Below, one piece after another: positions 7,329-45,675 of a stretch of 64,000 nt of DNA. Each line of letters starts with the position of its first letter. The first letter of the stretch is position 1. Source of the DNA: Promethearchaeia archaeon (GTDB lineage: Archaea; Asgardarchaeota; Lokiarchaeia; Sigyniarchaeales; SOKP01); contig JAHQWK010000001.1 in the NCBI GenBank assembly GCA_029856145.1, forward strand, positions 416,001 to 480,000, read 5' to 3'. Below the pieces are notes generated by a model that saw nothing but the letters and a program-made list of their open reading frames with translations, searched no databases and was not told the origin of the DNA. Both the position numbers and the translations under genes were made by a program.

Positions 7329-8687
7329 ATGATTTTCGATAAAGTTTTAGAAATTTGTCAGAAATACTATATTTGCGTTCATTGTCTTGGTAGAATGTTT
7401 TCTCTTTTAGGGACCAATACAACAAACTATGAAAGAGGTAATTCTTTATTACTTTCGATAACTATGGAAAATCACAGAAATTATCTATCCGGAAATGACG
7501 TTATTCAGAAAAAGGCAATTACTAATTTAAAATTATTAGCTAGTAATGCTTATTTTAAACCTGCTCAAAAAGTCTTAGATAATGAAGGGTTAGAATATGT
7601 GAAGAACAATTCAAATCAAATCTGTTATCTATGTAATAATATTTTTTTCAAAATTGAAAATTATACTAGTAAAGCAATCCAAATACTTGAAAAAATTGAA
7701 TTTGATAGCTTTTTAATTGGTTCAAGGCCAGATTCTCAAATTATTAACCGAGAAGATAAATTCAAATCAGAATTTACTCTCTTAGAAGCTGAATCTTTTA
7801 AAAGTCATTTTAATCGTGTATTAGGAAAACAATTATTACCAGTTTTAAATAAAATTCCTGAGTTTTCTAATCCTGATGTATTAATGATATACTCATTAGA
7901 TTATGAAAGATTTATGGTTGAGTTAATATTAAAATCTATCTTCGTTTATGGGAGATATAATAAATTAATAAGAGGAATCCCCCAAACCCATTGGTTTTGT
8001 AGAAAATGCAAGGGAACTGGTTGTGAATCTTGTAATTATACTGGAAAGCAGTATTTAACGAGTGTTGAGGATTTAATAAGTCCAGTGTTTATTAAGGAAT
8101 CAAAAGCAACTGATTTGAAGTTCCACGGCGCTGGAAGAGAGGATATTGATGTAAGAATGTTAGGTTCCGGAAGACCATTTATTATTGAATTAAGAAATCC
8201 TAAAATTAGAAATTTAAACTTGGTTAAAATACAAAGAAAAGTCAACAAAAGCAATAAAAAGAAAGTAAGAATTTACAATCTAAAATATAGTAACAAGAAG
8301 GAAGTAATCAAAATTAAAACGGAAGCTAAAAATACAAAAAAAATTTACAAAGCCATTATAAAATCTGAAAGTAAATTAAATAAAGAGGAATTTAACCAAA
8401 AAGTAATTCTTTTGAAAAATATATTTGAAAATAAGAAATTACATCAAAGAACACCCTATAGAGTATCTCACCGTCGAAGTGATAAAGTAAGAGAAAAATT
8501 AATTTATAAGATTGAAGGAAAATTGATAAAACCAAATTTATATGAGTTTATAATAGAAACTCAAGGCGGAACTTATATAAAAGAGCTCATCAATGGCGAT
8601 GAGGGACGTACTACTCCTTCTTTTTCAGAAATTTTTAAAACTCCTTTAGAATGTAAAGAATTAGATGTTTTAGAAATTTCTGTTTAA
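7329..8687 (+). CDS. pus10: tRNA pseudouridine(54/55) synthase Pus10
   Basis: CxxCLGR N-terminus, GRYNK..RGIPQT, FHGAGREDIDVRMLG.GRPF, QRTP.RV.HRR, GGTYIKELI.GD.GRT.PS. Confidence 0.95.
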   Translation: MIFDKVLEICQKYYICVHCLGRMFSLLGTNTTNYERGNSLLLSITMENHRNYLSGNDVIQKKAITNLKLLASNAYFKPAQKVLDNEGLEYVKNNSNQICYLCNNIFFKIENYTSKAIQILEKIEFDSFLIGSRPDSQIINREDKFKSEFTLLEAESFKSHFNRVLGKQLLPVLNKIPEFSNPDVLMIYSLDYERFMVELILKSIFVYGRYNKLIRGIPQTHWFCRKCKGTGCESCNYTGKQYLTSVEDLISPVFIKESKATDLKFHGAGREDIDVRMLGSGRPFIIELRNPKIRNLNLVKIQRKVNKSNKKKVRIYNLKYSNKKEVIKIKTEAKNTKKIYKAIIKSESKLNKEEFNQKVILLKNIFENKKLHQRTPYRVSHRRSDKVREKLIYKIEGKLIKPNLYEFIIETQGGTYIKELINGDEGRTTPSFSEIFKTPLECKELDVLEISV

Positions 8688-8803
8688 TGTTGATTTTATC
8701 TAATTTTATTTGGCGAAAATCAAAAAATAAATAAATTATAATACATAATTGTACTAAATCAATTGAATTATTTTCGCATTAACAATCATTAAGGTGTATC
8801 GAA

Positions 8804-9109
8804 ATAGTCAAGCACAGAGGATATAGGAAAAAAACACGGCATAAGCACAGGAAAAATGTTCGTAAGAGAGGTTTAGGTTCAGTTGAAAAATATTTAATTG
8901 ATTATAACACAAATGATAAAGTAGATATAATTACAGATTCTTCCCAACATAAACAAGGAATGCCTCATTCTAGGTATCATGGACGTACTGGAACAATAAT
9001 CGGTCAACGAGGGCGCTGTTATTTAGTTGAGGTGAAATTAGGAAATTCTAAAAAAACCTTAATAATTGGAAAGGAGCATATTAGATTAAATTCTGTTTCT
9101 ATAAAATAA
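8804..9109 (+). CDS. rpl21e: 50S ribosomal protein eL21 (missed by ORF track; apparent ATA start)
   Basis: Translation (I/M)VKHRGYRKKTRHKHRKNVRKRGL...GMPHSRYHGRTGTIIGQRGRCYLVEVKLGNSKKTLIIGKEHIRL, in the conserved pus10-L21e-rpoF position. In-frame TAA at 8780-8782 and no ATG/GTG/TTG before the conserved start. Confidence 0.93.
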   Translation: MVKHRGYRKKTRHKHRKNVRKRGLGSVEKYLIDYNTNDKVDIITDSSQHKQGMPHSRYHGRTGTIIGQRGRCYLVEVKLGNSKKTLIIGKEHIRLNSVSIK

Positions 9110-10299: not shown

Positions 10300-11141
10300 A
10301 CCCAATGAATAGGAGAGAAGTAGAACTCATTTTAAAGAATCTGAATATAAAACCTAACAAAAAATTAGGTCAGAATTTTTTAACTGATAAAAATATTACA
10401 AAAAAAATTATATCTGTTTCTGAAATCTCTCAGAATGATATTATTTTAGAAATTGGACCAGGATTAGGAATTATAACACAAGAATTAGTAAATTTAGTAA
10501 AAAAAATATATGCTATTGAAATAGATCACCGTTTATATTCATATTTGAATGATAAATTCTCCACATATGACAATGTGGAAATTATTCATGGAGATATACT
10601 CAAAGTTGAAATCCCTAAGCATAATAAGGTTATTTCTAATATTCCTTATACAATAACAGGGTCAATATTAGATAAGATATTTTTCAGAATAAATTCACCT
10701 GTAGGAATATTAACTATTGAGAAAAGTATTGCTGATCGAATATTTTTATCAGGAGATTATAAAAATTTCTCAAGAATTAGTATCAATGTAAATACTTTCA
10801 TGAAACCTGTTTTAAAATCAAGTATTTCAAGAAATAGCTTTTATCCTATTCCAAAAATCGCATTATCTCTTATAAAACTTATTCCTAGAGATAAAATCAA
10901 TCCTTTCTTCTTAGAAAAGGAACCTATAGACTTTTTTTTAAAATTTATTAGTGGGATAATGCCTTATAAGAATAGAAATATTGCTAATGCCATCGAACTA
11001 TTTTTTAAAACTCAAAAAGATATTCAGTATACAAAAGAAGATATTCTATTGATTTTACAGAAGAATAATTATGAAAATAAAAAAGTATTCAATTTTGAAA
11101 TTGATGATTATACTGAAATTAGCAAATTGTTCTATTCATAA
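10296..11141 (+). CDS. rsmA: 16S rRNA m6,6A dimethyltransferase RsmA/KsgA/Dim1
   Basis: KKLGQNFL, LEIGPGLG, AIEID, SNIPYTIT. Confidence 0.93.
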   Translation: MNPMNRREVELILKNLNIKPNKKLGQNFLTDKNITKKIISVSEISQNDIILEIGPGLGIITQELVNLVKKIYAIEIDHRLYSYLNDKFSTYDNVEIIHGDILKVEIPKHNKVISNIPYTITGSILDKIFFRINSPVGILTIEKSIADRIFLSGDYKNFSRISINVNTFMKPVLKSSISRNSFYPIPKIALSLIKLIPRDKINPFFLEKEPIDFFLKFISGIMPYKNRNIANAIELFFKTQKDIQYTKEDILLILQKNNYENKKVFNFEIDDYTEISKLFYS

Positions 11142-14666: not shown

Positions 14667-15200
14667 ATGGGAAACTCTAACGAAGAAGAACCTCCAAGAC
14701 CTAAAGGATTGAATTTAAACACCAAGGCACCATTGATTGATACTATAGATATTTACGAAAATCCTATAAATCTAATCGATCTTCTCAAGACCTATGATGG
14801 AGTTTTGATTGACTTTTTCCGAGGAAATTGGTGAAGCCATTGTAAAAAACACTTGAAGTTGCTGACTGAACATATCTCTGAATTTGAAATTAGAAGTATT
14901 AAATTAATATCTATTGCTAGCGATAGTGTAAGGCTTTTGAGGAAATTTAAAGAAGAAAATAAATTTGATGTTGATATGATTTCTGATAGAGGTGCTAAGA
15001 TAGCGAAACAATACGATGTTTACTGGTTTGCCCCTGGTGGAGGAAAAAACTATAAAATAAAACAAGCTGTACCAAGTAAATTCTTAATCGATAAAAATGG
15101 CAAGATTATTTGGAAATATATAGGAAAAGATAAGACAGATAGACCTTCAATTGAAATGATGACCAGTATAATTGATAAATACATCAAAAATCCCAATTAA
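14667..15200 (+). CDS. Peroxiredoxin-like (AhpC/TSA, thioredoxin fold) selenoprotein, Sec at codon 56
   Basis: ATG 14667 with AGGT upstream. MGNSNEEEPPRPKGLNLNTKAP...VLIDFFRGNW-TGA(14832-14834)-SHCKKHL continues in frame into the 14853 ORF (ISD.GAKIAKQYDV...PSKFLIDKNGKI.W....DRP). UxxC sits at the redox-motif position. Confidence 0.9.
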
Positions 15201-27772: not shown

Positions 27773-27883
27773 AAATTCTTTTAGAAATTATATTTGCCTC
27801 TAACTATACATAAATTTTAAGTTTAAGGAAACATTTTTTCTACTACTAAAGTTCTATCAATTAATAATTAGTAGGTGTTAAAT

Positions 27884-28318
27884 ATAGGTAGCCCAAAAGG
27901 TTTATATGCAGCTCGAAAACTTCAAGCCAACCGAAAGAAGTATCGATGGTCTAAGACAAAGTATAAAAGAAGAAAACTCCAATTAAAGAAAAAGGTCGAC
28001 CCTCTCGAAGGAGCATGCCAGGCTCTTGGTATTGTTCTTCAGAAAGTTGGTCGTGAGAGTAAACAACCAAACTCAGCAATTCGGAAGTGTGTGCGTATCC
28101 AATTAAAGAAAAACGGAAAATCAGTTACAGCGTTCTTACCCGGAGATGGTGCATTAAACTTTATAGAAGAACATGATAGAGTAATTGTCGAAGGAATTGG
28201 GGGAGCAAAAGGACGTTCCATTGGAGATCTCCCTGGAGTGCGTTATAAAGTTGTTAAAGTTAATGGTGTTAGTTTGGAGGCTTTACTCCAAGGGAAGAAA
28301 GAAAAGCCACTACGCTAA
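27884..28318 (+). CDS. rps12: 30S ribosomal protein uS12 (probable ATA start; alternative GTG 27875)
   Basis: [41 protein letters not shown]. Confidence 0.96.
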
Positions 28319-31178: not shown

Positions 31179-32096
31179 TTATTTAGTCATCAATTCAGCT
31201 AAGAGCGCTTTCCTCATTGGGATTCCATAATAAGTTTGCCTAAAGTAAATTGCTTTTTCTGAACTATCAACATCAGGAGAAATTTCTGTAATTCTTGGAA
31301 GCGGATGTAATAATCTAAAGTTATCTTTTGTATCCTTAAGATCCTCTTGTCGAAATACGTAAAATCCTTTAATTCTTTCATATTCTTCCAAATCAACAAA
31401 TCTTTCCTTTTGGATTCGTGTCATATAAAGAACATCTAAAATATTTAGTATTTTCCTATAATCCTTAATTTCTTTATATTTAACCTGTCGTTGTTGTAGA
31501 AAATCTTTGTCCCGATTTCTCATTCTCAATTCCTTAGGACTTATGAAATAAATATTCATATCGAAATTTGATAAAAGAATTGAAAGGGAATGAACTGTCC
31601 TTCCATACTTAAGATCTCCCATCAGACCTATATTCAATCCATCTAATGAACCAATTTCCTCAGTAATTGTTAACAGATCTAATAAAGCTTGAGTTGGATG
31701 TTCTCCGCTTCCAGAACCAGCATTAATTATCGGAACCTTAGAAAATTTTGATGCCATTCGAGCAGCTCCTTCAAGTGAATGCCTCATAACTATGCAATCA
31801 CTATAGTTTTCAACAGTTCTTATTGTGTCTGCAATGCTTTCTCCTTTTTTTATAGAAGAAACATCTCCAGAATGAAATCCAATTACATTCCCTCCTAATC
31901 TATACATAGCAGATTCAAAACTAAGACGAGTACGAGTAGATGGTTCAAAAAATAATGTAGCTAAGATTTTTCCTTGAAGAAGATTTGAATTCTTGATTTC
32001 ATTCATTTCTTTGCCTTTCCTTAATATATATTCAATATCTTCTCTATCAAATTGCTTAGCACTTATAATTCCTTCACTAAATTTATCCTTAAACAT
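31179..32096 (-). CDS. pyrB: Aspartate carbamoyltransferase catalytic subunit
   Basis: FFEPSTRTRLSF, HPTQALLD, GDLKYGRTVHSL, TRIQKERF, HPLPR. Confidence 0.97.
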   Translation of the reverse strand: MFKDKFSEGIISAKQFDREDIEYILRKGKEMNEIKNSNLLQGKILATLFFEPSTRTRLSFESAMYRLGGNVIGFHSGDVSSIKKGESIADTIRTVENYSDCIVMRHSLEGAARMASKFSKVPIINAGSGSGEHPTQALLDLLTITEEIGSLDGLNIGLMGDLKYGRTVHSLSILLSNFDMNIYFISPKELRMRNRDKDFLQQRQVKYKEIKDYRKILNILDVLYMTRIQKERFVDLEEYERIKGFYVFRQEDLKDTKDNFRLLHPLPRITEISPDVDSSEKAIYFRQTYYGIPMRKALLAELMTK

Positions 32097-32541: not shown

Positions 32542-32555
32542 AAAAGTGAGATATT

Positions 32556-32762
32556 ATGGTACATAAAAGACAAGAAAAAGGCCTTATTCCCCAACCTAAA
32601 AGTAGGTTTTTACGTGTAAAATGTTTGAATTGTGGAAATCAGCAAATAATTTTTGGTTGCTCTGCAACAGATGTAGAATGCTTAGTGTGTGGGAAAACTT
32701 TACTTCAATCCACAGGTGGCAAAGCACGTATTCTCACTAAAATATTAGAAGTTCTTTCTTAA
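32556..32762 (+). CDS. rps27e: 30S ribosomal protein eS27
   Basis: [20 protein letters not shown]...TGGKA. Confidence 0.96.
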
Positions 32763-40727: not shown

Positions 40728-40837
40728 TGTCTTGTATGAATATTGTTTATTATTTATTTTTTTAAAATTATTATTTATATTAATGATCTATAATTTTTTA
40801 TCTTTCACATAAAAAAGCAAATAAAAAGTGATTAAAA

Positions 40838-41281
40838 ATACCGAATTGGTTTATTCATAATAAATGGGCTGAAAAAGCTGGTATTCACAAAAATATAGCA
40901 GACTTAGTGAATAGAGCTTTAGATTATGGTTTCAATTGGGCTCTTTATGAACGAGATAATGTAGAATTTGAAAACAACGATGAGATCATTATTTCCCAGC
41001 AACTAAAGTATTTTTGTGAAAAAGATAAGGGGAAGAGAGGGTATATTAAAGCTCTTTATTTGCATCATCTCTTAGATTTTTTTAAAGAAACATATGTTAA
41101 CATTTATGACATTGATTTAGTTTTTGAGAAATTTTTACAAAATAAAGCTATAATTGAAATTACTGATTCTGAAGGTAATAGAATAAATTTCCAAAAGGAT
41201 TTAGAAGAAATATTCAAACTATTAAAAGATAATAAAAAAGAATTGTATGAGGATATAAAAGGAACATATATTGAAGATTAA
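40838..41281 (+). CDS. Hypothetical putative metal-binding protein (apparent ATA start; ORF track begins at 40907)
   Basis: (M)PNWFIHNKWAEKAGI...VNRALD...LHHLLD is in one frame; in-frame TGA at 40829; AGTGA SD 6 nt upstream of ATA. Confidence 0.65.
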   Translation: MPNWFIHNKWAEKAGIHKNIADLVNRALDYGFNWALYERDNVEFENNDEIIISQQLKYFCEKDKGKRGYIKALYLHHLLDFFKETYVNIYDIDLVFEKFLQNKAIIEITDSEGNRINFQKDLEEIFKLLKDNKKELYEDIKGTYIED

Positions 41282-44907: not shown

Positions 44908-45201
44908 AAAGTCTACAATTGATTTTTTTTATTCTATTTTAACTTACTATTTGTTTTTTTTAAAATTCTATATTTAACTAGATTCATTTTTCATTAAATT
45001 CTCAAATTATTTACAAATAAAAAAGATATATAGGAGAAAAATTTCAACCAAAAAACATCATTCATGTTAAATTAGATAGTGTTGATACAATAGAATTTTT
45101 CTTTTAAAATTTTCATGTCATGTCAATATCATTTTAATTTTTGAACAATTTTCTGCCTTTTCTAATTAACGTAATTTTGCATTAGAAAGGGTTGACATAA
45201 A

Positions 45202-45675
45202 GTTTATACAACAAAACAAAAAATTTGCCTTGTAGGGCATAGCGGGGTTGGTAAATCATCACTATTATCTTTGCTTCAAGGACGTAATGTATCAAAAGAA
45301 GCAAATCCAACTGTAGGATTAGAAATTGAGGATTCAAACCTTAATGGGAAAAAGATTAACATATGGGATTTTGGAGGTCAAGCACGGTTTAGATTCATGT
45401 GGCAAGACTTTTTAAGAGGAGCAGGCTTAACTGTTTTAGTTTGTGATTCTACAGAAGATAATATTAAAAAAACTAAAGATATCTTTAAGAAGTTCTCACG
45501 ATATATGGATACTAAAATTATTGCTATAGCAAATAAACAAGATCTTCCAGGTGCATTAAAAGCAAAGAAAGTTCAGAAAAAATTAGGTATTCCAACATAT
45601 GGAATGTCTGCTATCAGATTGGACTTACGAGATAGAATACGTGAAATTTTGGAATATGAGATTGAAAAAGATTAG
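45202..45675 (+). CDS. Arf/Sar-like small GTPase; P-loop lies upstream of the predicted TTG, true start non-canonical or frameshifted
   Basis: In frame upstream of 45271: ..YTTKQKICLVGHSGVGKSSLL. Then PTVG, WDFGGQ.RFR.MW, ANKQDLPGA, SA. In-frame TGA at 45193-45195. Confidence 0.8.
   Translation, partial: VYTTKQKICLVGHSGVGKSSLLSLLQGRNVSKEANPTVGLEIEDSNLNGKKINIWDFGGQARFRFMWQDFLRGAGLTVLVCDSTEDNIKKTKDIFKKFSRYMDTKIIAIANKQDLPGALKAKKVQKKLGIPTYGMSAIRLDLRDRIREILEYEIEKD

Follow-up and report, generated by a model that had tools for sequence, protein, structure and literature searches.

The eL21 locus

At which codon does translation of ribosomal protein eL21 begin when its intact reading frame offers none of the usual start codons? 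The question comes from a prediction made on a 64,000-nucleotide stretch of Lokiarchaeia DNA (the window), which had placed the start at an ATA codon behind a Shine-Dalgarno (SD) sequence. Contig C9 carries the window; the genome it belongs to measures 3.55 Mb, is 97% complete and is a 32-contig assembly with gaps. The features of the locus are as follows.

8780..8782, + strand: in-frame TAA, the upstream end of the eL21 frame, read from the sequence
8792..8796, + strand: Shine-Dalgarno core AGGTG, which pairs with the 16S tail as read in two genomes of the genus; GGTG stands before most genus orthologs
8804..8806, + strand: ATA, the inferred eL21 start codon, aligned to ATG/TTG of relatives
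8804..9109, + strand: rpl21e, 101 codons, single copy, flanked by pus10 and rpoF
8960..8962, + strand: first in-frame ATG, used by gene callers to give a 49-aa fragment

All coordinates of the original prediction were confirmed. The eL21 frame has no ATG, GTG or TTG between the TAA and the conserved amino-terminus, and ATA 8804 sits at the methionine position, 7 nt past AGGTG, a usual spacing that falls within the peak for ATG genes. The frame is open from 8804 to the TAA at 9107–9109, and its earliest ATG, GTG or TTG is ATG 8960, 52 codons beyond the ATA. The encoded protein matches the Pfam family Ribosomal_L21e (PF01157) over its full length from residue 3 (E 7e-29), and the gene order pus10-rpl21e-rpoF is conserved. 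A search of the genome for a second, canonical rpl21e returned this single match. Synonymous differences exceed non-synonymous ones 2.5–3.5-fold in comparisons with five relatives; this essential gene is under purifying selection. Contigs of four studies cover codon 8804–8806, one of the runs being possibly the source of this DNA, and all read ATA; with ATA also present in relatives, sequencing error is as unlikely as had been argued. RNA runs contained less than 15% of the region's words, and a promoter scan, which used a bacterial consensus, gave matches at chance level. Inside the 3' end of pus10, about 200 nt upstream of eL21 (8601–8630 of the window), we also observed a hairpin that resembles a terminator and has a T run.

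The start codon among relatives

In 34 genomes of the genus the methionine column of eL21 reads ATA in 14, ATC in 7, ATT in 5, TTG in 4, CTG in 3 and ATG in 1. ATH (ATA, ATT or ATC) or CTG thus occupies the column in 29 of 34 orthologs, and in 25 of those 29 a canonical codon is absent all the way back to the stop. The same ATA is found at this column in 13 other species; ATG, looked for at this site in close relatives, occurs only in the one genus genome. Outside the genus the picture is different. The 20 genomes from other genera of the family carry ATG (10), TTG (4), GTG (3) or ATH (3), and the 25 loci from other families carry ATG (17), TTG (6), GTG (1) or ATT (1), so that ATG, GTG or TTG fills the column in 17/20 and 24/25 cases respectively. 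As the outgroups place these codons at this column, the column is the start. eL21 is present in 76 of the 81 family genomes searched. Genome G028 has a second eL21 (G028:C39, L057), 45% identical, which is apparently a contaminant derived from a different Asgard lineage.

The NCBI, JGI, ENA and Logan protein sets contain precisely the 49-aa fragment that begins at 8960, and the exact ATA-started translation is absent from the same public protein collection. The suggestion that near-cognate starts explain annotation gaps was therefore borne out as truncation, eL21 being on record solely as this fragment. It follows from near-cognate starts that standard gene finders truncate such proteins.

Other candidate starts in the window

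The same arrangement of SD, 6 nt and a non-canonical codon had been proposed for three more genes, with rps27e as the canonical counterpart.

27873..27886, + strand: uS12 (rps12) start region, AGGTG, 6 nt, ATA 27884, with an in-frame GTG (27875) in the SD; compared in 13 relatives
32545..32558, + strand: canonical control rps27e, AGTGA, 6 nt, ATG
40827..41281, + strand: gene of unknown family, AGTGA (with an in-frame stop), 6 nt, ATA 40838; compared in six relatives
45190..45675, + strand: Arf/Roc-family small GTPase, GGTTGA, 6 nt, GTT 45202; identified by Pfam, start from the codon column of relatives

The rps27e control was found exactly as described. At uS12 the geometry is present, but the ATA is not forced, because the in-frame GTG 27875, three codons ahead, sits inside the gene's own SD. 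The codon directly ahead of the conserved residues in 13 relatives is ATA in 6, GTG in 5, TTG in 2 and ATG in 0. A uS12 start at ATA 27884 is likely. The ATA at 40838 is supported by six relatives, where the start codon, following an in-frame stop, is ATT in 5 and ATA in 1; this gene has no Pfam match. The GTT of the Arf-family gene also gained support from its relatives. It is kept as GTT or GTA in ten genus genomes, and where the family's other genera are aligned the column reads GTG, TTG, ATG or ATT. Given this alignment GUU, with two mismatches to AUG, is probably the real start; the probable start (window 45190–45204) is conserved in the genus and in some members of a sister genus. Elsewhere in the window (14835–15200) a peroxiredoxin-like ORF (AhpC/TSA) directly follows an in-frame TGA, and the residues after that TGA are SHC. 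The TGA may represent selenocysteine in a UxxC motif, and the genome has a tRNA-Sec.

Probable near-cognate starts across the genome

A start model learned from ATG genes was run with each of the 61 sense codons allowed as a start. The confident calls included ATT 23, ATA 12, ATC 11, CTG 3 and ACG 2, with other non-canonical codons at 2 or fewer each. The summed ATH posteriors came to 247 of 3110 genes, which is an upper figure, as the noise codon GAA reached 56. An approach that used no start-codon model took 128 ORFs that are coding-like well upstream of their first canonical codon. SD-spaced ATT occurred 23 times in frame versus 0.5 per other frame, and SD-spaced ATA 14 times versus 2.5, so the genome-wide scan also returned the in-frame excess of ATA.

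Orthologs gave a further estimate. Among 478 common to this genome and G023, a divergent genus member, 6–8 of 169 genes have ATH without a usable alternative opposite a G023 N-terminal ATG. In the same comparison all six non-canonical cases without a nearby canonical codon were ATA, ATT or ATC with an SD, whereas each of the 26 codons that were not near-cognate lay only a few codons from a canonical one, which explained it. Approximately 18–20 of the 478, read by eye from the list, have conserved protein sequence well ahead of the first canonical codon. Against a genome of another family (G044; 145 genes) there were 5–6 cases of this kind here and 2 in G044. ATG is kept in ~80% of ortholog pairs genome-wide, and the excess of its loss in pairs with an SD (12/83) over those without (15/207) is not significant (p 0.07). 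Taken as sequence evidence, these estimates make it very probable that ~4–6% of all genes have AUA, AUU or AUC, and in rare cases CUG or GUU, as the start codon that follows their ribosome-binding site. Near-cognate starts appear to occur at a low level across the order and to be frequent in this genus. Routine initiation at AUA, as originally proposed, holds in that SD-spaced non-canonical starts recur in the genome and the lineage, but it was too narrow: AUU, AUC, CUG, ACG and GUU are used too. The phenomenon is near-cognate initiation in general, with AUU the commonest codon genome-wide.

We identified 59 ribosomal proteins, five by Pfam and the others from operon order together with an N-terminal motif. 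Their starts are ATG in 41, GTG in 6, TTG in 4 and ATH in 8, the last being eL21, uS12, uS14, eS30 and uS10 (ATA) and eL34, eS26 and eL8 (ATT). The ATH share of 13.6% corresponds to a 1.7–3.4-fold enrichment, with a binomial p of 0.002 if the background is taken as 4% and of 0.10 if it is taken as 8%. Within the genus eS26 has ATT in 12/12 loci and eL34 has ATT or ATC in 15/16; outside it both mostly have ATG. In this assembly uS3 is apparently split by a frameshift (G000 C8, about 31450–31680, minus strand). In the other family (G044, L339–L378) the apparent starts are ATC for rpoA' and ATT for a small regulator-like gene; this genome has ATG there.

The initiation machinery

Relaxed discrimination of start codons had been offered as a cause, and this remains plausible, but aIF1, its loop 1 included, the initiator tRNA and the anti-SD all proved free of lesions in relatives. 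In this assembly the 16S gene is cut at a contig end and the genes for aIF1 and the initiator tRNA are absent, and both were read from relatives. These absences are probably gaps. aIF1 was found in 33/36 genus genomes, and in two relatives it lies 9–11 kb from the 16S 3' end. The anti-SD is canonical in the two genus genomes examined (G002 and G004), and in five genus genomes the initiator tRNA carries the CAU anticodon, A1-U72, three G-C pairs and a 37/38 intron. We rejected an altered initiator tRNA, since the first pattern searches, which used another family's sequence, had missed the intron-containing gene and that gene is canonical. In some of the five, further introns interrupt the variable loop or the T arm, and the other family's initiator tRNA has D-arm introns instead. 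ARAGORN mis-calls many tRNAs of this genome, which contain non-canonical introns.

The aIF1 gene itself begins at an invariant ATT in 21/21 readable genus loci (L068–L090), 1–3 codons past an in-frame stop and without a canonical start. In other Asgard families it starts at ATA, ATC, CTG, GTG or ATG, several of these families having no in-frame ATG there and others having one. Loss of aIF1 was rejected as the cause, the gene being missing solely from this assembly. So was damage to loop 1: the genus protein keeps the zinc knuckle and a basic loop 1, and its KWGR motif also occurs in Asgard lineages with an ATG-started aIF1. The corresponding loop of P. abyssi aIF1 is R31-Y32-x-K34 (PMC6237735). 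In vitro, the S. solfataricus 30S complex binds an AUU mRNA without aIF1, not with it (PMC4705826).

Weighing the explanations

We consider it probable, at roughly 0.85, that eL21 is translated from AUA 8804 by SD-led near-cognate initiation, the route predicted for ~4–6% of genes. AGGUG would pair with the canonical 16S tail and hold the 30S subunit, placing the codon 7 nt downstream in the P site, where a normal Met-tRNAi (CAU) would pair imperfectly with AUA, with a third-position mismatch, and insert methionine. The other genes would follow the same route with AUU more often than AUA, AUA more often than AUC, and rarely CUG, ACG or GUU. What likely makes this possible is that start-codon proofreading has a permissive set-point, with aIF1 intact and its own gene at the invariant AUU, and the eL21 codon would drift among near-cognates rather than be fixed at one weak codon. 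Both initiation at AUA with methionine and the role of aIF1 are what we infer from comparing genomes. It is rather doubtful that the SD-anchored 30S of this genus takes AUH, CUG and even GUU nearly like AUG for highly expressed genes.

Could the ATA instead be an error, or the gene a pseudogene? The gaps of the assembly and a few apparent frameshifts, as in the uS3 region, leave some room for this, but four studies and 13 other species agree on the codon, the one copy is intact and the gene persists across the family, making the idea extremely improbable. Use of an upstream AUG through readthrough, frameshifting, intron removal or RNA editing has slightly more to commend it: ATG 8687, which overlaps the stop codon of pus10, shares its frame with eL21, and a 10-codon ORF begins, in another frame, at the GTG within the eL21 SD. 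Between 8687 and eL21, however, lie two in-frame stops, the SD-to-start spacing differs among relatives, which excludes a fixed frameshift, and ATA, ATT, ATC and CTG are not all convertible to AUG by one type of editing; we regard this route as very unlikely. Reassignment of AUA to methionine, as in some mitochondria, would account for ATA at the expected methionine position, and in its favour there is a tRNA with the anticodon UAU, two introns and an acceptor stem of the Ile type (G000 C8, about 10418–10591; L419 in G023), while TiaS was found neither with PF08489 in G000, G002, G023 and the one-contig genome G044 nor with TIGR03280 in G004. In conserved columns internal ATA nevertheless stands opposite Ile in 74% of cases and opposite Met in 2%, ATG facing Met in 75%, and between orthologs ATA pairs 1580 times with ATT or ATC and 87 times with ATG. 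Reassignment also leaves the ATT, ATC, CTG and GTT starts unexplained. It has next to no chance of being correct, and the genetic code is unchanged, internal ATA being Ile on this evidence. TiaS is present in another Asgard family, and these Lokiarchaeia may read AUA by tRNA-Ile(UAU) and not by agmatidine. Eukaryotes read AUA with tRNA-Ile(UAU).

A more serious alternative, tentative though it is, holds that selection maintains the weak codons for regulation, as for infC, forming a set controlled by aIF1 (aIF1, eS26, eL34, uS14, eL21 and uS12) whose translation would rise when aIF1 falls. This would add to SD-led near-cognate initiation and does not exclude it. The invariant ATT of aIF1 and eS26 would be expected of such a set, as would ATH in 8/59 ribosomal proteins and the scarcity of ATG in eL21 (1/34) and uS12 (0/13) orthologs. 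Against it, the ribosomal enrichment is not significant at the 8% background, and single ribosomal genes switch between genomes, for example uL15, with ATG in this genome and ATT in G023. On a tree of eL21 from 34 genomes, built with the start region excluded, the start codon changes 16 times by parsimony. A mutation-selection model of this one gene, which is near saturation and relies on assumed mutation rates, had its likelihood peak at an ATG fitness of -1 to 0 relative to ATH. Setting ATG at +2 made the fit 5 log units worse, and strong avoidance (-3) was 2.3–4.5 worse than the peak; the model also disfavours two-mismatch codons at eL21. The likelihood does not separate neutrality from mild avoidance of ATG, found in 1/34. 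Under this model ATG would have no detectable advantage at eL21, and tolerance fits better than tuning. The suggestion that ribosomal-protein output is tuned thus keeps the weak support of the 8/59 enrichment, and is opposed by a codon close to neutral among near-cognates at eL21. Judged by their codon columns, aIF1 and eS26 seem to be kept at ATT and eL21 seems free, and regulation may apply to part of the gene set.

Relation to known systems

Bacteria are known to have near-cognate starts that follow an SD; pcnB, for one, begins at AUU. The E. coli infC gene, encoding IF3, likewise has an AUU start, subject to translational autocontrol (Butler 1987, reviewed in PMC4705826). The genus resembles both in having near-cognate AUU starts behind an SD, and infC further in that a fidelity factor's own gene, here aIF1, has an invariant AUU. 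Few genes are involved in those systems, however, compared with ~4–6% here at no fewer than five codons; the system here is the archaeal aIF1/aIF2 one, with free codon exchange at eL21. eIF1, of the same SUI1 family as aIF1, similarly has a weak start on its own mRNA, being autoregulated by a poor AUG context (Ivanov 2010, reviewed in PMC4705826). By means of weak starts, E. coli infC and eIF1 both restrict how much of themselves is made (PMC4705826). Eukaryotes retain AUG and find it by scanning, in contrast to a non-AUG codon positioned by an SD. A review of archaeal initiation names AUG, GUG and UUG only (PMC7531240), and ribosome profiling of Haloferax volcanii found ~30% of putative alternative starts to be near-cognate, setting them aside to limit false positives (PMC7261190). 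SD-led archaeal initiation, that of Haloferax included, uses the same machinery as here, but in this genus the near-cognate codons appear to be conserved main starts of essential genes. The literature searched, which covered few subscription papers, yielded no description of AUH starts for any Asgard archaeon.

On these estimates gene callers truncate or overlook ~120–200 genes per genome in this widespread genus of Lokiarchaeia. Among them are genes for ribosomal marker proteins, for aIF1 and for small GTPases that serve in studies of eukaryote origins. Eukaryotes are strict AUG initiators. Their archaeal relatives appear unusually permissive, yet keep the same aIF1 and initiator tRNA. The genus may therefore offer a natural substrate set for studying how stringent initiation arose, and whether aIF1 limits its own synthesis.
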